From a virus (Duplodnaviria > Caudoviricetes): DNA of 64,000 nucleotides. The stretch spans positions 4,093-68,092 of IMG/VR virus record IMGVR_UViG_3300017689_000002; one strand, 5' to 3'. The notes under the pieces were generated by a model. The model was not told where the DNA came from. It was given only the letters and a program-made list of their open reading frames with translations, and searched no databases. Shown here piece by piece: positions 3,419 to 53,407 of this stretch (positions within the stretch are counted from its first letter, which is position 1; the number at the start of each line of letters is the position of its first letter). Position numbers and translations under genes: made by a program.

Positions 3419-4093
3419 CTACTGAGTAATTTCTTCCGTGGGCGGAAGCTCAATGATATAGCCCTGACGGACGTTACGGACACCGGCGTCGATGAGGTTG
3501 AACCAACCCCACTTGTCATCAGCCCAGCTGCCAGAAATACCAGCGCTAGCGTAGAAGTCCGACACCGAGACCACATCGTAACGGTCCACGAAGTCACGCA
3601 TACGGTCCAGGACTACTTCAGCGTCACCCCGAGTGGGGAAGACAATCTCTTTGAAGTCGTGAGTCGCTCGACCTCGCTGAGAAATAGTCCGCGGCGCAGC
3701 CTCCTGAGGACGCATACCACCATTCACAGGCCGGTTATACGCCGTCTGCTGACGTGCAGCTCCGACCGGACCACCCTGACGAGTAGAGCGAACGCCACGA
3801 ACCTCACCGTACAACATACGCTCGATACCCTGGCTGACCACGTCAGTGATCGTAGCCTTGACTGCCGGCATGATCACATCGAACATGATGAACTGACCAA
3901 CACTGTGAGCGTCGTCACCAGCAAAGGTATCCACGATACGACGACCGAAGGGGCGCTTACGTTCGATAGCAGTGCCCGAAACGATCTTGGTCACCGGCTC
4001 CTTCTCAGGAGCTTTTGCCAGGTTGCTAGGCTCTTCTGTGCTACCCTGAGGCTTCTTCTTGCTGTTGCTCGAGTAGTTGTTAGGATCCGCCAT
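3419..4093 (-). CDS. Conserved phage hypothetical protein
   Basis: 224 aa, SD AAGGAAG, C-terminal VSVSDFY..DDKWGW..L..A.VR..R.GY.I.LP pattern. Confidence 0.7.
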   Translation of the reverse strand: MADPNNYSSNSKKKPQGSTEEPSNLAKAPEKEPVTKIVSGTAIERKRPFGRRIVDTFAGDDAHSVGQFIMFDVIMPAVKATITDVVSQGIERMLYGEVRGVRSTRQGGPVGAARQQTAYNRPVNGGMRPQEAAPRTISQRGRATHDFKEIVFPTRGDAEVVLDRMRDFVDRYDVVSVSDFYASAGISGSWADDKWGWFNLIDAGVRNVRQGYIIELPPTEEITQ

Positions 4094-26576: not shown

Positions 26577-27128
26577 TTAGCCCTTGGTTCCCAATTCAGC
26601 TTTTCGCTTTGCGTTTAGATCGCGGTTTCTAGCGGCCAACTGAGCGGGACTCATTTTGGACTTGGCCTTACCCGTGTTCTGTTTGTCGCCGATAACCTTG
26701 ATCAAGGTCATCAAACGACTAAAGTGCCAATACTGCACTTGGAAGTCAATCTGACCCGTGACAAGCCAGTAATATACAACTTCAGATGTAATGATCTCGT
26801 TGCGACCGGGTTTATCCGGCGTAGCACCAAACCAAGTCGCCGAACGCTTAGCGTTGATGTACCGGTTGATGTCGTCAAGATCCGAAGCGGAAAGTAGGTG
26901 ATAGACGGCGGGATCGACGTCTTTGTTCAGGGTCATGCAGCGAACGTAATCGAGGACCTGAACGTTAGTCTTTTCGGCATTACCCAGGAAGGGAATCTCC
27001 CAAGTTTCCTCCCATTTTGAAATGGAGACCAGGGAATGCTCTAGCTCAAGCACAAACTTAACTGGAGGAATGAATTGGTTGATCTCCGCATTCCACAGTT
27101 CTTGTGTTTCAACTTCAAGTCTGAGCAT
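26577..27128 (-). CDS. Tail assembly chaperone (T-like)
   Basis: Start MLRLEV after SD AAGGAG; LELEHSLVSISKWE..W..PFL, DYVRCMT, WHFSRLMTLI; follows tail tube. Confidence 0.65.
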   Translation of the reverse strand: MLRLEVETQELWNAEINQFIPPVKFVLELEHSLVSISKWEETWEIPFLGNAEKTNVQVLDYVRCMTLNKDVDPAVYHLLSASDLDDINRYINAKRSATWFGATPDKPGRNEIITSEVVYYWLVTGQIDFQVQYWHFSRLMTLIKVIGDKQNTGKAKSKMSPAQLAARNRDLNAKRKAELGTKG

Positions 27129-27156
27129 TCCCTGATCTCCTTTCCTAATTGCTGGT

Positions 27157-28023
27157 TTACGCGAAGGTGTAGACCCAGTCGTCGTCCGAGCTGGCCGAGA
27201 GCTTGTAGCCCTGCGTCGCAACCGCGGTGACAACGGTGTCCTTCGTGATCGTAACGGTTCCGCTGACGGCCTTGCCATCGATGCGGTACTGAACACCGGT
27301 GACCGTGGGGATCGTGATGACCTTGGTCGTGGCGTTGTACGACGGAGCCGCCGCAGTGACGGCCGTGTTGGTACCCGACATGATGGAGGCAATCTCGGCG
27401 GGGAGGGGCAGACGGGGGTCCGTAGCGCCGCTACCGTAGAGGATGGCCTCGATCTCAGCAAGCTTGGCTGCCGGGACCTTGGTCGAGTCGATGGTGATCG
27501 TAGCCGACGGCTTGCTACCAGGAACGTCGACCGCGGTGGTCGTGAGCTCCCAGCTGAAGGTGATCGCCTCAGGCGACTCGTTGACGGTACCGAACGCCTT
27601 CTCCGTGGGAGCAGCAAGTGCCCCATAGATAAGGTGGATCTTGTAACCCTTGTCGGTACCAAGAACGTCATCACCAACGAGCGTGCGGTACGAAAGACCA
27701 AACGTCAGACGGTTCTGCTGACCGACAGTGATACCAGGAGCGATCTCCTTGGTACCGTCGTTGGCCGCAAACTCATCGGGGTAGGTGAAGGCTTCGATGG
27801 TTGCACCGAACTCCTCCGCCGAGATGAGGTTGAGGTACTTGATGTTGTCGGCGTACATCGGAGTAGCTTCGGCACCCGAGGGGCTTTCGCTAATCGAGAC
27901 GAGACCATTCCAGGCCACGCCATTGACGTAGTTGCCGGCACTATCGCGCTGGTAAAGGACACCCTTGTTAACGCCGGTTTCGTAACGGCGCTGACCGGTG
28001 GCATCCCAAATGAGTGCTACCAT
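27157..28023 (-). CDS. Major tail (tube) protein with C-terminal Ig-like domain
   Basis: phi13-type tube motifs; GC-rich high-expression codon usage. Confidence 0.9.
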   Translation of the reverse strand: MVALIWDATGQRRYETGVNKGVLYQRDSAGNYVNGVAWNGLVSISESPSGAEATPMYADNIKYLNLISAEEFGATIEAFTYPDEFAANDGTKEIAPGITVGQQNRLTFGLSYRTLVGDDVLGTDKGYKIHLIYGALAAPTEKAFGTVNESPEAITFSWELTTTAVDVPGSKPSATITIDSTKVPAAKLAEIEAILYGSGATDPRLPLPAEIASIMSGTNTAVTAAAPSYNATTKVITIPTVTGVQYRIDGKAVSGTVTITKDTVVTAVATQGYKLSASSDDDWVYTFA

Positions 28024-28652: not shown

Positions 28653-30854
28653 CTACGCGGTGTAGATGTAGTCCCAGTTGTTAACCGTGTTCGCCGGGAA
28701 CGAGTAACCCTTGGCGGCGCGAGCCTCAACGGTCGTGTCCTCAGCAATGGTACGGTTACCGTCCTGCACGTCAACACCATCGATCGAGTAGATGACACCG
28801 TCAACGTCCGGGATCGTCAGCACGTGGGTCGAGCTGTTGTAGGACGGCTGCGGCGGGGTCACCACGGTGCCGAGCGAGCGCTTGATGACGACAGCCGACT
28901 TGGGCTTGGTCAGGGCACCCGAGACACGGGTCTCGATCAGGTACTTCTCCTGGTTGAAGTCGATGTCGAAGTCGCTGAACATCGTGACATCGCCACCGCG
29001 GTCCGTACCGATGGTGTAGTCGGTCAGGTTGACCACGATACCAAGGATGTCGGGAGCGTCGTCCATGACCTCGACGGTCACGATCTTGGCAACACGCAGA
29101 GCCGAAGCCAGAGCAGCCTCGGTCTCGTACAGACGACGGCCCATCTTGTCCTCGAGGAGGATGAGGTCGGTCAGCGTCTTGTCCGTGGTGTAGAACGTGG
29201 GGGTACCGGTACCCTTGTAGTACGTACGGGCACGGAGGACAGCGGTGATGATCTCCTTGGGAGCCAGCTCCGAGGTCAGGTTGACCTGGTGAGCGTACAT
29301 CTCGTTGTCGTAGGCGATCGGACGGATGTGGTCCTCGTCGATCTTGTCGTCGTCATCCGCGTCACGACCGTCACCGATCAGGATGGCACGAGCAAGTTCC
29401 TCGTCGAGCATGACGCGCATCTCGGCCTTGAGCCAAGCAACGATGTCCAGCGAGGTGATCTCCAGGATGTCGTCCCGGTCGAGCTTCTGCTTCTTGTAGA
29501 TGGTCTTGGCCGTGGTGACACGCTTCAGGAGCTTGATCACCTCGTCCTTCTTGAGGGTGCCCTTGACGTAACCCTTGGCGCGAGCCTCTTCGGCCGTGAT
29601 GTCAACAGCAGTCGACTTGATTCGCGAGAAGGGAGCCTTGCGGGTGGCGCCCAGGACGTCCTTGACCCACTCGGTACGACGACCGATGATCTCAGGCGAG
29701 TTCGCCAGGTTCTGAGCATCCGGGAACAGGACATCGATGTTGTCGATACCATACTCACCAGCGTGAGCCAGCACGGACTCGGACAGGAGGCCGAACTTCG
29801 GACCGTCCTTGACGATCGTGGAAACCTCGGAGTGGCTCAGCGTGTGCTGTGCCGTGGTCGAACCACCGTTACCGGCAGTGTCAAAAATGTTGCGGCCCAT
29901 GTCGGTACCTTCCTGGTGTGCGAGAGTGTCGGAGTTGTTGTCACCCTGAGCAAGGGTGGTGCCGTTGGTGGCTTCGCCGATCATGAAGTAGACCAGCGCT
30001 TTCTGCTCTTCGGTGAAGCTGTCGAATACATCTTCGGCGGTCTTATCGGCCATGTTAGTTCCTTCTGCGTGAGAAATGTCGGAGTCTTCTTCATCGTCGT
30101 CTTCGTCATCATCGTCATCTTCGTCCCCAAGGGCCTCAGAAAGCATGTGACGGACAACAGCTGCTTGAGTGTCATCGAGCGTATCAAGTACGTCGGCGAT
30201 ACTCAGTTCGTCATCCCCTTCTTCATCCGAGTGGCCCAGGGCCTCAGTAAGCATGTGGCGAACCACAGCAGACTGCTCTTCGGTGAAAGTGGCGAAGACG
30301 TCGGCGATACTCTTTTCCTCATCACCATCGGTATGAGCGATAGAGGCCTGCTCGTCCTCGACTACCTCCTCGCCGGGAGTAATCGAGTGCGTGTCGTCGT
30401 TGAAGATAATAGCTTCCTCTTCAATCGGCGTCATGGTACCATCACCGTGCATCATGTTGACGTTATCGATGGTGGCGCCAGGGTTAGCACCAGCAAGAAC
30501 GAGACTGACCTCACGAATCATACCGTGAGTAACGTCCTTACCAGTAACTCCGCTGTGGACCAGCTGGTTAGCGTAGATGGACAGAGCCTCCACGTCGCCG
30601 TGCTGGACGAGCTGCTTAGAGTCCCGACCCTTCTCGGTGTCATTGAAGAAGCCGTAGGCGTAAACGCCATCTTCACGGTGCTCCAGAATTGCGTGACCGA
30701 GAACGTTCTCAGGACCATTGTGCTGGTGCTGCCAGACGAGAGGGACACGCTGCTTGTCCTGGTGCTGGAAAGCACCCGACATAATTGTCCGACCATCGGA
30801 GCACTTGATACCATTCTTTGAAGCGTAACCGCTAAAGTCAGGCTTGGGTGCCAT
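28653..30854 (-). CDS. Prohead protease-scaffold-major capsid fusion protein
   Basis: Start MAPKPDFSGYA after SD AAAGGA; HK97-type protease (VWQHQH..VLGHA, EVSLVLAGANPGA), acidic scaffold, capsid body (YGIDNIDVLFP...DIDFNQEKYLIETRVSGAL). Confidence 0.9.
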   Translation of the reverse strand: MAPKPDFSGYASKNGIKCSDGRTIMSGAFQHQDKQRVPLVWQHQHNGPENVLGHAILEHREDGVYAYGFFNDTEKGRDSKQLVQHGDVEALSIYANQLVHSGVTGKDVTHGMIREVSLVLAGANPGATIDNVNMMHGDGTMTPIEEEAIIFNDDTHSITPGEEVVEDEQASIAHTDGDEEKSIADVFATFTEEQSAVVRHMLTEALGHSDEEGDDELSIADVLDTLDDTQAAVVRHMLSEALGDEDDDDDEDDDEEDSDISHAEGTNMADKTAEDVFDSFTEEQKALVYFMIGEATNGTTLAQGDNNSDTLAHQEGTDMGRNIFDTAGNGGSTTAQHTLSHSEVSTIVKDGPKFGLLSESVLAHAGEYGIDNIDVLFPDAQNLANSPEIIGRRTEWVKDVLGATRKAPFSRIKSTAVDITAEEARAKGYVKGTLKKDEVIKLLKRVTTAKTIYKKQKLDRDDILEITSLDIVAWLKAEMRVMLDEELARAILIGDGRDADDDDKIDEDHIRPIAYDNEMYAHQVNLTSELAPKEIITAVLRARTYYKGTGTPTFYTTDKTLTDLILLEDKMGRRLYETEAALASALRVAKIVTVEVMDDAPDILGIVVNLTDYTIGTDRGGDVTMFSDFDIDFNQEKYLIETRVSGALTKPKSAVVIKRSLGTVVTPPQPSYNSSTHVLTIPDVDGVIYSIDGVDVQDGNRTIAEDTTVEARAAKGYSFPANTVNNWDYIYTA

Positions 30855-30910
30855 TTTGAAGTATTCCTTTCTGTTCCTTGCGGACCGAGGTCCGAGTAGT
30901 CTTAACTGCG

Positions 30911-32197
30911 TCAACCATCAGCAGACCTGGCTCGATCTGTGACGGCATCCAGCTCACCCACATCGACCGGCGGCAAGGCTTCTTGACCTGCAGCTGTTTT
31001 GGCGATCGGCATGTTCGAGTTACGCAGTTCGTTGGCCTTCGGATCCTTAGAAGGACGGAAGCCAATGATGCCACGAACCTCGTTGGAAGAGAGGATCTCG
31101 TTTCGGGTAAATTTGTCAGCAATCTCGGCCATAGAGCCAACAGGAACCAGACTGAACGGATCCCTGAAGAACTTGATGGTCTGAAGCTGGGTGCGAGCTG
31201 TCTTCGTAAGGAACGTACGAGTCATAGCTTGCGTGACCGCGGTCATGATGGGTTCAATGGTGCGGTTGTAGTAGTTGAGCATGACTTCTTCGGAGGCAGA
31301 GCCCTCAAAGACTTCTTTAGTAATGCCCAGCTGACCATAGAGCATGTTGGTCAGATACTCGACCTGTGCCAACATGTTGTTCTCGGCGGGACGGTTGAGC
31401 TGTGTGATCTTCTCGTTGCCGTCCACGTATGCAATGCCGTACTTAGACCCCTTGAGCTGCATCTCGATGTCTTTACGACGAGCGTTTGCTTGTTCTCGTT
31501 TGGTGTCGGTACGAACTGTATACGGCAGCTGAACGATAAGGTCCAACTTACCCGAACTGGTCTGTTCGTCAATAGCATCCAGCATCTGCAGTTTACGAGT
31601 GAGACGCGACAAAGTCGAGTTAGGCTCGTTCATGACAGACGATAGAGGGTTTTCGACAATAGCAACCGCCGACTTCGACATCACCATTTCCTGATGAAGC
31701 CCAGTGCGATCATTGTAAACATTAACTCGGACGTGCCGCGGATACCAACCGATCACCTCAGCAACTCGCAAGGTACGAATATCGTACCCTGTGTAGATGT
31801 TAGGGTTCTCGGAAGTATCAACCGGAACAATAGCGATAGCGCCCTTATCCAACAACGTCATTACGACGTCCTGCATAAAGGCACGAGCACCTTGATCGAT
31901 ATTAGCCTCAACGCTCAAGCAATTATTCAGACCACTAGAGACCGGCTCGAGAAACTGGTTGTTCTCATCCAGACGAGCATGAACCACATCAATGGCGGCC
32001 GCGTCAATAGCAATGCGAGTGTAGATCGAGTTAGTGAACGACCTGTCATTGCCCATGTTAAGTCGAACTTTATCAGGTCGCTGTCCATAAGACATACCTA
32101 CCTGAGGCCCTACATTAAATGGAGAAAGACGATCCTCTTCAGGACGCGTAAACGCGTTCCAAGCGTGGGCAAGTCTATCACGTATGTTATCCGCCAT
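30911..32197 (-). CDS. Portal protein
   Basis: About 428 aa between terL and capsid; RLAHAWNAF, KLDLIVQLPY, LQLNRP-like, NEILSSNEVR. Confidence 0.9.
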   Translation of the reverse strand: MADNIRDRLAHAWNAFTRPEEDRLSPFNVGPQVGMSYGQRPDKVRLNMGNDRSFTNSIYTRIAIDAAAIDVVHARLDENNQFLEPVSSGLNNCLSVEANIDQGARAFMQDVVMTLLDKGAIAIVPVDTSENPNIYTGYDIRTLRVAEVIGWYPRHVRVNVYNDRTGLHQEMVMSKSAVAIVENPLSSVMNEPNSTLSRLTRKLQMLDAIDEQTSSGKLDLIVQLPYTVRTDTKREQANARRKDIEMQLKGSKYGIAYVDGNEKITQLNRPAENNMLAQVEYLTNMLYGQLGITKEVFEGSASEEVMLNYYNRTIEPIMTAVTQAMTRTFLTKTARTQLQTIKFFRDPFSLVPVGSMAEIADKFTRNEILSSNEVRGIIGFRPSKDPKANELRNSNMPIAKTAAGQEALPPVDVGELDAVTDRARSADG

Positions 32198-49900: not shown

Positions 49901-50078
49901 TTTTCTCCTTAATCTGGTCCATCAGGAACTTCAAAACTTCTCGATCTTTGGGATAATATGCACCAGCAACGGCCTGCCTAAGCACCTGATACGTCTCCTC
50001 CGGATCTCCAGCATCAATCATGAGGATCTCTTCGCGAGGATCGTAATATGGATCCTTGTACCGCCAGTGTTTACCCAA
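46959..50078 (-). other. Array of about 14 small hypothetical genes, several with CxxC Zn-finger motifs and TM anchors
   Basis: Coupled minus-strand ORFs, for example 47161-47607, 47830-48144, 49397-49603, 49591-49896. Confidence 0.6.
48391..48681 (-). CDS. ParB/sulfiredoxin-like domain protein
   Basis: PILLGNDGRIWDGHHRICIAIELG. Confidence 0.7.
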   Translation of the reverse strand: MLESNKPILTEVRVADLVDLYRPGSRDWGWMEECLDLFSRDKAKTFRILERVLNEGIGFADDIQPILLGNDGRIWDGHHRICIAIELGIERVMVEM

Positions 50079-50652
50079 ACCAAGGCCTCACAATCAGCGC
50101 AACGATCGCCGACACGACACCGTTAAAGAGCAACAAGAGCAAATAACGACTCGTCGACAACGTGATGGTCCTTTTTTTCTTAGGTTCTTGTTCGTGAATT
50201 ACGCTACGAATATCTGCAGAAGTCAGAGGGGTGATAGGCAGACTCTCCCTATCAATATAATCCTGCATAAGACCGCTAGAGTCGTAGTGCGACCCAGTCT
50301 TAAACCCCAGACCACACATCATGCATTTATCACGCCGCTCGGCTTCGTCAGCCGGCCAGCGTCGGAACATGTGGAATCCATCTTCACGGCTCATGACTTC
50401 AAGACCATCCCTGATAGTGTTGTATATTTCATGCAGTTCTGTATACCTTTCTCGGCCACAACGTATACAGAGACGTTCGTTATAAGAACCTGGCTTAAAC
50501 GTGTGATAGTCGGAACTAACACCAGCCAACAGATGCAATTCGCTGTTTTTTCTCTGACCGCAATACATGCAGAACTGTCGGTTGTCGACTTCGTTGTTAG
50601 TCCTTTCAGGCCATGGACTAAACGTATGGTAATTGTCTCCAATCTTCACCAC
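50071..50652 (-). CDS. Triple Zn-finger protein with C-terminal TM anchor
   Basis: Three H.F...CxxCG...H units. Confidence 0.65.
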
Positions 50653-52184
50653 TTAACCTCCTTCTCGTTGAACGTTTTTTTCTGCGCCAATGCTTTCTCA
50701 ATGAGCTGGTCGATTCTGGCAGCTGATCTAAACACGTAGTAATATAGATTGGTGAACGGCGTGTTCAACCGATCGATACGACCTTGCGACTGCTCATAGA
50801 TTTTCCAGCTGTAATTGAGAGAGTAAAACGCCATGGCATCAGTTGTAATGCAGTTCCAGGCTTCGGAAGCAGCAGTATATTGTGCCAGGTATAGCCACTT
50901 GCCGCCTTCTGGGACGGGTTCATGCCTGTGACCATTCCACTCCTTAGTCAAATATCCTAGCGTCTCAGAGAGCGTCCTGAGGGCGAAGAGCTCATAGTCG
51001 AAGTTGTAGAACACGATAAGCTTGGGGTGCTCTTCAAGTAGTTGCATGAGAGCACCCAGTCTCGAGGGATCCGAGTTTACCAGCTTACGTCCAACAATGA
51101 ACATCTCACCGACATCCTTCAGTGGACGATCCTCATAGATATGCCAACGATCTATCCAGACACGACGAAATAGGGCTTCGTCATGTCCGACAAGGATTTG
51201 TCTAATGACACGCTTAGTTGCGCGCGCATACGGCATTTCCACCAGTATTCGGTTACGATACTTGACAAGTCGGTTGACTTCCACAAACCGATCGATCTTT
51301 GGGAAATTTCCGTAGCGGGCGTATACGGCATGGGTACGTAGGAATTCCGTGCGGTTCTTATACCATCCGTTAGCCACGAATACTGGTATATAGTCCACCC
51401 ATGTGTCTCCAGGAGTGGCAGAGAGCATGATCCACTGATTAGCTTTGGCAATCTTGAGGAAGGCCTTAACCCAAGCTCCGCTACCAACAAGACGCTGCTC
51501 ATCAAATATGAAGAAAGCATCCTTTACCTCCGTATAGTTGACAATATTGTTCCAGGAATCGACTACAAGTGCGGGGGGAACTCCGACTTGTTGCTGTCCG
51601 GATCCCACTCCGCCCATGGAGCCATCAGATGCTTTTCGAACTCGTCCGGTGTGTACGGCATCGGCATTCTTCTCATCAGTTCTTTGATTCTTGGATGTGG
51701 ATCCATTCCGTGAGACATCAGACTGTCCCACGCCTGCTTGTCTCGCCCCATCAGCCGATCCAGCTCCTTGTCCGGAATATGTTGGCCAATAGGACGCACT
51801 CCGCTTCGTAGATATCGCGAAGGCCGCAGCTTCCTCTTCCCAGTCCGCACTGTCGCGTTTGCGTGCCGTTGTGATGACGTATATATCGACGGCTTTGGGG
51901 GTTGGCTGTACCGTAGTGTTAGCTCTTGCAATACTAGAGCTGCTTCCTCCGCCGTGTATCCCAGACTCGGACCCTCCGGAGATATCGGTCGAATCTTCTC
52001 CGCCGCCAATCGACCTTGGTACGACGCATCCGAAACTATCGATCCTGTCTCGATATAGGACTTGGGTTGTATAGTAAGCCAGCGCTGTACGGCTTTTACC
52101 CGTGCCGACACCGCCTTTGAGAACTTTACCATTAGATATCTTTCCTACTGCTTCTCGTTGATGTTTGTATAGATTAACTGACAA
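50646..52184 (-). CDS. SF2 (SNF2/UvsW-like) DNA helicase with two low-complexity insertions
   Basis: [28 protein letters not shown] motifs. Confidence 0.88.
51563..52132 (-). CDS. Candidate overlapping gene in the +1 frame of the helicase (189 aa)
   Basis: ATG with SD-like AGGA; protein-like composition exactly where the helicase frame is Gly/Ser-rich; stop falls at the return to helicase motif VDSWNN. Confidence 0.45.
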
Positions 52185-52445: not shown

Positions 52446-52925
52446 TTACCTCCTAGTGTTGAACTGCGACATCCTCAGGTTGAGAACGTTGTTGTTTTCA
52501 GTATTGCCATCCAGATGCCGCACCTCCTTTGCAGGATCCCAGTCGTAGAGAAAGGCCACAGCAACCAGACGAGCTACGTTACGATTGAACCTACCCTTTT
52601 CATTAGGGAGGGTAATCATAACGCTTTTTTTGTTAGTTCTCTGTTTCATGATGCGCTTGGAATATGAGTTACGGATGTTGCCATTATCGCTAACCTCGTA
52701 ATCCGGGAACTCATCGATTGTTCGCCAGTCTTCAGCAAACTTCATGAGCTCAAAGGGGGCCAGGAACTCAAGGACAGCCATATCTGTCGTAGCCGGCCCG
52801 GTGTTGTACCCAGCCCCATACCAACGTCCATTTTCCAGGCGCCAGGGATCACCCCTACGATCTAGGTAGATCCCTGGCGCCTTGGGAAGTTCGTACTTCT
52901 TAATCATGACTCTTACGGTTAGCAC
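52446..52925 (-). CDS. NUMOD4-HNH endonuclease-like protein
   Basis: EDWRTIDEFPDYEVSDNG; EVRHLDGNTENNNVLNL. Confidence 0.75.
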   Translation of the reverse strand: MLTVRVMIKKYELPKAPGIYLDRRGDPWRLENGRWYGAGYNTGPATTDMAVLEFLAPFELMKFAEDWRTIDEFPDYEVSDNGNIRNSYSKRIMKQRTNKKSVMITLPNEKGRFNRNVARLVAVAFLYDWDPAKEVRHLDGNTENNNVLNLRMSQFNTRR

Positions 52926-53223
52926 TCTTATGAGACATCTTAAGGTTGTCTACTCTCAAGTTAGTCATGTCACCGTCCTTGTACTCGATTGCCTTTTTTT
53001 CGTCAAACTCAGGAAGGAAATATTGAGCAACCAGACGAGAGACGAGGAACGACTTCTGAATACTGTTAATATACAGAGCTACTCGAAGTTGGCCGTTCTT
53101 AGGGCTGACGGCCTTAGGGGTAAGCATATATCCTGTGTCAACGTTTAGGACCCGGCCCAAGTTACTGACCTGGTACTTGTTATACCCTCGGATACCTGCC
53201 CAAACCTCTTGTAGGTCACTCAT
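52900..53223 (-). CDS. NUMOD4 protein with degenerate HNH
   Basis: EVWAGIRGYNKYQVSNLGRV; IEYKDGDMTNLRVDNL. Confidence 0.75.
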   Translation of the reverse strand: MSDLQEVWAGIRGYNKYQVSNLGRVLNVDTGYMLTPKAVSPKNGQLRVALYINSIQKSFLVSRLVAQYFLPEFDEKKAIEYKDGDMTNLRVDNLKMSHKSANRKSHD

Positions 53224-53407
53224 GCTCTTCCTCGATATATTGGTAGTGGAAACCCTGATGAGTTTCTCTTTCCTTACGCAAACACCTGTAGATTGCGCTG
53301 TAATCACCATTAACATGTCTTGCTGCTTCTCTTGCCGATTCGAACTCCTGATCCGTTTCTACAATAAGGACATGCTTTGGCTTAGGCGGCACGCGAATTC
53401 CACGCAA
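53216..53407 (-). CDS. Stand-alone NUMOD1-type HTH protein
   Basis: FESAREAARHVNG..SAIYRCLR..R.THQGFHY. Confidence 0.7.
   Translation of the reverse strand: MRGIRVPPKPKHVLIVETDQEFESAREAARHVNGDYSAIYRCLRKERETHQGFHYQYIEEEHE

Follow-up and report, generated by a model that had tools for sequence, protein, structure and literature searches.

A candidate gene nested in the +1 frame of an insert-bearing helicase gene in a metagenomic tailed phage

We analysed a 64,000-nucleotide stretch of tailed-phage DNA (Caudoviricetes; IMG/VR record IMGVR_UViG_3300017689_000002, positions 4,093 to 68,092), hereafter the window, in which a helicase gene may carry a second gene in its +1 frame. The helicase gene (50646-52184, minus strand, frame 0) begins at a TTG codon and encodes 512 residues of an Snf2-like superfamily 2 (SF2) ATPase, a phage 'DNA helicase'. 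Within it, on the same strand, lies a +1 open reading frame (ORF) of 189 codons running from ATG to TAG (51563-52132), a candidate overprinted gene that spans two insertions in the helicase. The ATG (52130-52132) stands 7 nt downstream of a Shine-Dalgarno-like run, AGGAAAG (52140-52146, minus strand), and the TAG (51563-51565) overlaps the Leu-Val-Val codons of the helicase motif LVVDSWNN. The length of this frame, the AGGA before its start and its termination where helicase motifs resume had all been described correctly in a first-pass annotation of the sequence. The gene caller used on the source contig chose the 189-codon +1 ORF and cut the helicase to 323 residues. That annotation (L004, 2486-3972) thus splits the helicase into a 189-residue +1 product and a 323-residue C-terminal fragment starting at Met190, so databases carry a truncated helicase for this contig.

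The identity of the frame-0 product is clear from several kinds of comparison. It matches PHROG 62 'DNA helicase' (E = 7e-48) and shares 61% identity, outside the inserts, with DNA helicases of Arthrobacter and Curtobacterium phages. Its AlphaFold2 model resembles the Swi2/Snf2 cores of Rad54, ISWI and RapA (Foldseek E 1e-9 to 1e-11; template modelling score 0.45-0.53). Together with these matches, a Walker A box, GGVGTGKS (motif I; 52092-52115, minus strand, frame 0, placed by homolog alignment), and a DExx box, DEQR (motif II; 51492-51503, minus strand, frame 0), identify an SF2, Snf2-like helicase; DEQR is the earliest strongly conserved motif past the +1 stop. Sequence searches of Pfam, NCBIfam and PDB gave no match. 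The Walker A box, DEQR and the C-terminal RecA-like domain are common to the window helicase and the PHROG 62 helicases of Arthrobacter, Gordonia and Curtobacterium phages. Unlike the window helicase, the PHROG 62 helicases that we found in cultured phages lack both inserts. In Curtobacterium phage Pippin15 (L001, PQ868951.1, 2200-3478) the helicase coding sequence in GenBank begins past the Walker A box; the same open frame extends upstream and includes that box, so the true start probably lies further upstream than annotated. In +1, that gene is open for 252 codons. The TTG start of the window helicase immediately follows the TGA stop of the upstream gene and aligns as homologous to the ATG start of the helicase in the metagenomic relative L003.

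Two segments of the window helicase, both between motifs I and II, are extra relative to the Arthrobacter and Curtobacterium phage proteins. Insert 1 (51891-52028, minus strand; residues 53-98, 46 codons) reads in frame 0 as a Gly/Ser-rich loop, and insert 2 (51567-51791, minus strand; residues ~132-206, 75 codons) as a Gly/Ser/Arg-rich loop. The Gly/Ser-rich inserts noted in the first-pass annotation are thus present by homolog alignment, at about 46 and 75 residues, and are Arg-rich as well; its statement that homologs lack them is right for most, since the Walker A box and the SWN motif are separated by 53-78 residues in 95 of 101 measurable homologs and by 177 in the window. The helicase model predicts the frame-0 inserts as coil (predicted local distance difference test, pLDDT, 24-35) flanked by confident strands, with pLDDT below 50 at residues 60-95 in insert 1 and residues 137-199 in insert 2. 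Such predicted disorder would fit a permissive loop and dual coding alike. An intein or intron was rejected: the inserts comprise 46 and 75 codons, are in frame in all genomes and are low-complexity coil in frame 0, and neither had a match in Pfam or Rfam.

Seven further metagenomic helicases have inserts at the same site or sites, each with frame 0 intact. Three of these (L003, L053 and L055) make up with the window a four-member clade, all of whose members come from metagenomes. Both inserts are present in L003 (protein P0001), where they are longer than in the window; L053 (P0005) and L055 (P0003) have insert 1 only. The other four (L056-L059; P0006, P0015, P0004 and P0102) belong to other sub-clades, and their insert 1 sequences are unrelated to those of the clade. 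These independent inserts occupy the same loop, which follows the Walker A helix, and AAGGAG stands upstream of the ATG. We sought closer relatives in viral contigs (by protein and by DNA patterns drawn from conserved blocks) and in genome and metagenome contigs, as well as with short protein fragments and an N-terminal-only protein search; none was found beyond the insert-less homologs.

The start and the openness of the +1 frame accompany the inserts. The same ATG opens a +1 ORF of 261 codons in L003, 163 in L053 and 109 in L055, and also opens one in L056-L059, so that start codon and open frame are kept in all eight insert-bearing helicases, over 109-261 codons. The ATG arises because a conserved Asn-Gly pair is spelled AAT-GG, as it is in 8/8 insert-bearing genes; AAT is used in 7 of 20 insert-less homologs with Asn-Gly. 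Only 4 of the 16 insert-less homologs that have the ATG are open in +1 to the same degree. In five of the eight insert-bearing genes the +1 frame reaches the SWN motif, and in the window, L003 and L055 it ends 2-5 codons short of it. All eight have a GGAR run 7-8 nt upstream of the ATG, and the frame-0 residues encoded there vary (GK, TE, EK, KE). When all six frames were compared in the four clade members, frame 0 and +1 were the only ones open throughout; the remaining four had 1-15 stops across the region, and the plus-strand ORFs at 51569-51811, 51738-52058 and 51859-52074 were not conserved.

We compared frame-0 synonymous divergence (pS) in the non-insert parts beneath the +1 ORF (codons 18-51 and 98-131) with that in the reference region downstream (codons 207-505). 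Within the clade, pS was 0.37-0.55 under the +1 ORF against 0.64-0.80 downstream, with a ratio of 0.52-0.76 in all six pairs (Fisher p 0.02 to 4e-7); the disjoint pairs window-L003 and L053-L055 each gave p ~1e-4. Overall, pS under the +1 ORF was about 0.6 of the value for the gene. Nonsynonymous divergence (pN) was not lowered in the overlap, being the same or higher (0.11-0.25 against 0.10-0.20). Among 526 pairs of insert-less homologs the pS ratio was 0.97 ± 0.13, and the 0.4% of pairs at or below 0.65 were near-identical mosaics in which pN falls too. The suppression also respects the boundaries of the +1 ORF. Codons 1-17, upstream of its ATG, show none (mean pS 0.64), and a sliding scan placed the clade minima at residues 21-40 (0.29), 31-84 (0.37) and 113-132 (0.37), with pS at least 0.45 elsewhere and at least 0.56 beyond the +1 stop. 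Mismatches were spread evenly over codon positions in the overlap (e.g. 10:10:9) and were 8:7:40 downstream. A codon-position comparison had been proposed in the first-pass annotation as a check on the second frame; pS is suppressed under the +1 ORF, and the insert parts, as set out below, are unconserved in both frames. Recent recombination of the 5' part of the gene was rejected as a cause, since it would have reduced pN as well, unalignable inserts lie between the conserved blocks, and the gene just upstream is wholly different in the window and L003.

The synonymous constraint is concentrated in two short blocks on the minus strand. Block 1 (52068-52085) reads GCG CTG GCT TAC TAT ACA, that is ALAYYT in frame 0 and RWLTIQ in +1, and its third codon positions are nearly invariant in the codon alignment of the clade. 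Block 2 (51807-51833) reads GAA GCT GCG GCC TTC GCG ATA TCT ACG (EAAAFAIST in frame 0, KLRPSRYLR in +1), with SCC as the fourth codon in the clade alignment; its third positions are identical in all four members except in the first codon, which is GAA or GAG. In L056-L059 the third positions of both blocks vary freely. Each block lies just upstream of an insert, and the helicase is immediately preceded by two NUMOD4/HNH endonuclease genes, as might be expected if the blocks were RNA or DNA signals in their own right, such as a site bound by a regulator or nuclease, or a place where translation pauses before each loop, with the +1 ORF incidental. We consider such an element unlikely. It has no Rfam match, no repeats, iterons or promoter-like sites were found, and the blocks are not complementary to each other by eye; it would also leave unexplained both the conserved ATG and the polymorphism pattern inside insert 2, described next. 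With no repeats, the related idea of an origin of replication with iterons was dropped.

Nearly the whole of insert 2 is covered by contigs from a second study (51459-51792), which differ from the window at three mapped single-nucleotide polymorphisms (SNPs; 51686, 51695 and 51755), all of them in insert 2. Each falls at position 1 of a frame-0 codon, which is position 3 in +1. All three are synonymous in +1 (I, H, R) and change the helicase (Q>K, S>P, A>T), a pattern with P = 0.007-0.014 under neutrality, albeit at three sites only. The same contigs contain no indels. Both inserts end at homopolymer C runs, where sequencing or assembly indels might have produced a false second frame, and the first-pass annotation had named such indels among the findings that would overturn its proposal. 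We found none. A contig from a different assembler, probably of the same sample, matches the window without a difference over 1101 nt (depth 10), the second-study contigs are gap-free, and the architecture recurs, with frame 0 open, in seven other genomes. Assembly error is therefore excluded.

Long open frames can arise without selection, and the main competing account is that only the helicase is made. The inserts would then be fast-evolving, poorly codon-adapted disordered loops at a permissive site, and the +1 frame would merely look coding. A +1 stop requires T at position 2 of a frame-0 codon, which specifies a hydrophobic residue, so hydrophilic loops rarely produce +1 stops. Given the frame-0 protein and the codon usage of the phage, insert 1 would escape a +1 stop with probability 0.84, insert 2 with probability 0.59 and the whole stretch with probability 0.09 (0.025 for the whole stretch in L003). 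Off-frame runs of 183, 180 and 149 codons free of stops occur in other genes of the window. The longest is a +2 run in a 754-residue gene (28653-30914, minus strand), an example of how common long off-frame runs are in this phage. The 180-codon run, also in +2, extends from the first codon of a 375-residue ORF (26577-27701, minus strand) whose synonymous codon usage is very atypical (z = -7.7), and the frame assignment of that ORF, or a second frame in it, may merit closer attention. Over the N-terminal domain, 6 of 33 insert-less homologs are open in +1, three of them without the ATG, where a stop-avoidance null predicts 1.3. Further observations that favour this account are the low-confidence coil predicted for the inserts, the unrelated inserts at the same site in other sub-clades, and the orphan status and lack of a confident fold of the +1 product.

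The codon choice within the inserts is unusual. Codons ending in A make up 0.18-0.44 of each of the ten inserts, with 9/10 at or above 0.27 and insert 1 of the window at 0.28, against 0.14 genome-wide. The +1 codon score in the inserts is near 0 per codon, compared with -0.75 in the +1 frames of ordinary genes, and it was positive in none of 138 control windows. Against synonymous resampling, the +1 codon scores of the ten inserts gave z of 1.1-4.4 (mean 3.0), whereas ordinary genes of the same phage gave -0.05 ± 1.18 with a maximum of 2.8. In the reverse calculation, given the +1 protein, the probability that frame 0 stays open ranges from 0.057 to < 0.0005 per insert, so both frames appear to be maintained. 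A synonymous-codon likelihood failed to separate the frames and performed poorly even on the middle segment, which is certainly coding.

We regard the account with the helicase as sole product as an appreciable possibility. It leaves unexplained, however, a synonymous freeze that occurs only under the +1 ORF and only in the clade, with amino-acid divergence unchanged, and it must assign the frozen third positions to some other cause or to a mosaic history, the latter being hard to reconcile with an undiminished pN and with unalignable inserts between the blocks. Nor does it predict that 3/3 SNPs are synonymous in +1 or that 8/8 insert-bearing genes keep an open frame with its ATG.

The first-pass annotation had offered a second interpretation, paired programmed frameshifts or bypassing, in which the helicase would be decoded from frame 0 to +1 and back twice and the +1 text would be part of the enzyme. 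Its coordinates were right: GTCCTAT occurs at 52055-52061 and 51789-51795 and the C runs at 51897-51901 and 51573-51578, so the inserts do end at C runs, and their +1 text is more like ordinary protein than the frame-0 text is. Frame-0 homology nevertheless continues 9 and 3 codons beyond the proposed shift sites. Past the first site, YRDRIDSFG of the window corresponds to GRDRIDAFG in L003 and GGDLRINSFG in phage Caterpillar; past the second, SASYWP is common to the window and L003. GTCCTAT is not conserved, reading GTCCTCG and GTCATAT in L003, the nearest relative, and chance alone would be expected to repeat a 7-mer within 570 nt (we estimate ~10 repeated pairs). A phmmer search of 1.8 billion proteins found no homolog with the +1 peptide in frame, and the +1 text has no similarity to the inserts of other sub-clades; a likeness of the form 'SLG...L..EL' that the +1 text seemed to bear to the frame-0 inserts of P0006 and P0015 proved to be chance (z < 1.5). 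In eight genomes frame 0 has no stop in any insert, an openness that this model would not need, and we know of no precedent for four frameshifts within one gene. Recoding is thus very unlikely. Of the two interpretations, then, frameshifting or bypassing is not supported, and independent statistical signals favour the overprinted nested gene, which stays a candidate.

Several observations weigh against a nested gene. The length of the +1 ORF alone is not significant, being no more than chance. When codon composition was fixed and the frame had to be open, the order of codons contributed little, and nothing significant (mean z 0.76 against 0.21 in controls), and the codon-choice signal could equally reflect loops without codon adaptation. 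The parts encoded by the inserts lack conservation in either frame between clade members. In the comparison of the window with L003, similarity was not significant for inserts 1 and 2 in +1 or for insert 2 in frame 0; it was marginal for insert 1 in frame 0 (z 2.0), and a z of 3.5 for insert 2 in +2 is probably an effect of low complexity. No DNA match was found inside the inserts between clade members. The synonymous constraint is uneven, being concentrated in two blocks of 18 and 27 nt, and outside the clade a dip in pS occurs in one pair only (L058-L059); L056-L057, most other pairs among L056-L059 and pairs between sub-clades have none. The SNP evidence comprises three sites in contigs of depth 2.5, and a neighbouring contig, X2 (51459-51626), has two more differences whose positions were not placed. 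The Shine-Dalgarno evidence is weak, as Lys, Glu and Gly codons yield purine runs anyway. For the predicted product, Pfam and PHROGs gave no homolog, and among 1.8 billion representative proteins of any length phmmer returned only the ORF itself and one low-complexity match; clustered at 90%, the +1 ORF and P0001 are each the sole member of their cluster. AlphaFold2 run on four +1 sequences gave five isolated helices (pLDDT 58, predicted template modelling score 0.17), and the ESM Atlas model is poor (pLDDT 0.44). When insert 2 is read in +1, about 10% of the residues are methionine, an unusual share for a protein. Finally, same-strand overlaps longer than 60 bp are reported to be rare in prokaryotes (bioRxiv 10.1101/724807).

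On balance, we judge it probable from the sequence comparisons that 51563-52132 is an overprinted nested gene translated in +1 from the ATG at 52132. A nested +1 gene is the simplest account of three observations taken together: third positions that are frozen, the pattern of the SNPs, and a conserved ATG and open frame linked to the inserts. We infer that the constraint on synonymous sites arises from translation of the +1 frame. Frame 0 would then supply the N-terminal RecA-like domain of the helicase, with the inserts as disordered Gly/Ser/Arg-rich surface loops between motifs I and II. The +1 frame would supply a separate 189-residue protein, by internal initiation at the ATG behind AGGAAAG, with translation presumably ending at the TAG that overlaps the LVVDSW codons. 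In this protein RWLTIQ and KLRPSRYLR would be two short conserved motifs, on the helicase segments with frozen third positions, and the inserts would bear its variable body. The inserts may persist for the sequence that they add to the second protein, the helicase merely tolerating them as loops. From its basic motif and predicted helices one might guess at a small nucleic-acid-binding or regulatory protein. A broader suggestion is more tentative: insertions in this helicase family might exist because of the second frame, which would encode a fast-evolving protein, for example in host interaction or anti-defence, growing by insertion at permissive loops of an essential replication gene in at least eight lineages with unrelated inserts.

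The small ORF adjoining the helicase is unrelated in the window and L003, which points to a mosaic junction at the helicase start. Just upstream are the two NUMOD4/HNH homing-endonuclease-like genes (52446-53316, minus strand). The order DUF7448, NUMOD4/HNH, small ORF, helicase is found in both the window and L055 (L055 753-1109), and L053 (125-818) also has NUMOD4/HNH genes and small ORFs upstream of its helicase. Directly downstream, overlapping the helicase gene by 7 nt, is a gene for a 193-residue protein (50071-50652, minus strand) with three zinc-ribbon-like C-x2-C ... H repeats (CMYCG, CIRCG, CMMCG).

If confirmed, the +1 ORF would be a rare long gene-within-gene in a double-stranded DNA phage. 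Long same-strand genes within genes are textbook in tiny viruses, and in tailed phages annotations hardly ever contain them, since gene callers do not allow such overlaps; here the caller split the helicase instead. A real +1 protein would mean that insertions in essential phage genes can carry new genes, and that some Gly/Ser-rich "linkers" of phage proteins may be shadows cast by another frame. Synonymous-site suppression combined with insert-linked open frames would provide a comparative test for more cases, and if the insertions serve the second frame, large double-stranded DNA phages would have a route to make and diversify genes inside old ones. If the +1 protein is not real, the locus is a caution that hydrophilic loops automatically yield long protein-like +1 ORFs.

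Overprinting as such is known, and three systems bear comparison with the candidate. In the spanin genes of phage lambda, Rz1 is embedded in the +1 frame of Rz, so that, as proposed for the helicase, one phage gene contains the whole of another, read from the same strand in +1 with its own internal start. Rz1 is ~60 codons long and both products act in one pathway, whereas the candidate frame has 109-261 codons and lies in a replication helicase; unlike Rz1, it is an orphan, borne largely on hypervariable insertions and predicted from sequence. The lambda origin of replication, a DNA element inside gene O, is another case of a second function housed in protein-coding DNA, the stretch serving the protein as a flexible linker between folded parts. 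Unlike that origin, the helicase inserts have no iterons, AT-rich core or repeats and no conservation at the DNA level.

Overprinting in small viruses (genes B, K and E of phiX174; many accessory proteins of RNA viruses) has been reviewed (PMC8227390, PMC6195259). The candidate resembles these cases in a new frame of odd composition and little predicted structure, in an old frame with reduced synonymous change over the overlap, and in the narrow phylogenetic range of the new protein. Long same-strand overlaps have hardly been reported in double-stranded DNA tailed phages, and our literature search found no nested frame of 109-261 codons on hypervariable, recurring insertions in a tailed-phage replication helicase. 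Small viruses are under strong pressure on genome size; here the genome is that of a double-stranded DNA tailed phage, with a contig of ~68 kb. Whereas the overprints of small viruses only re-use existing codons, the candidate overlap in the helicase gene would grow by insertion.

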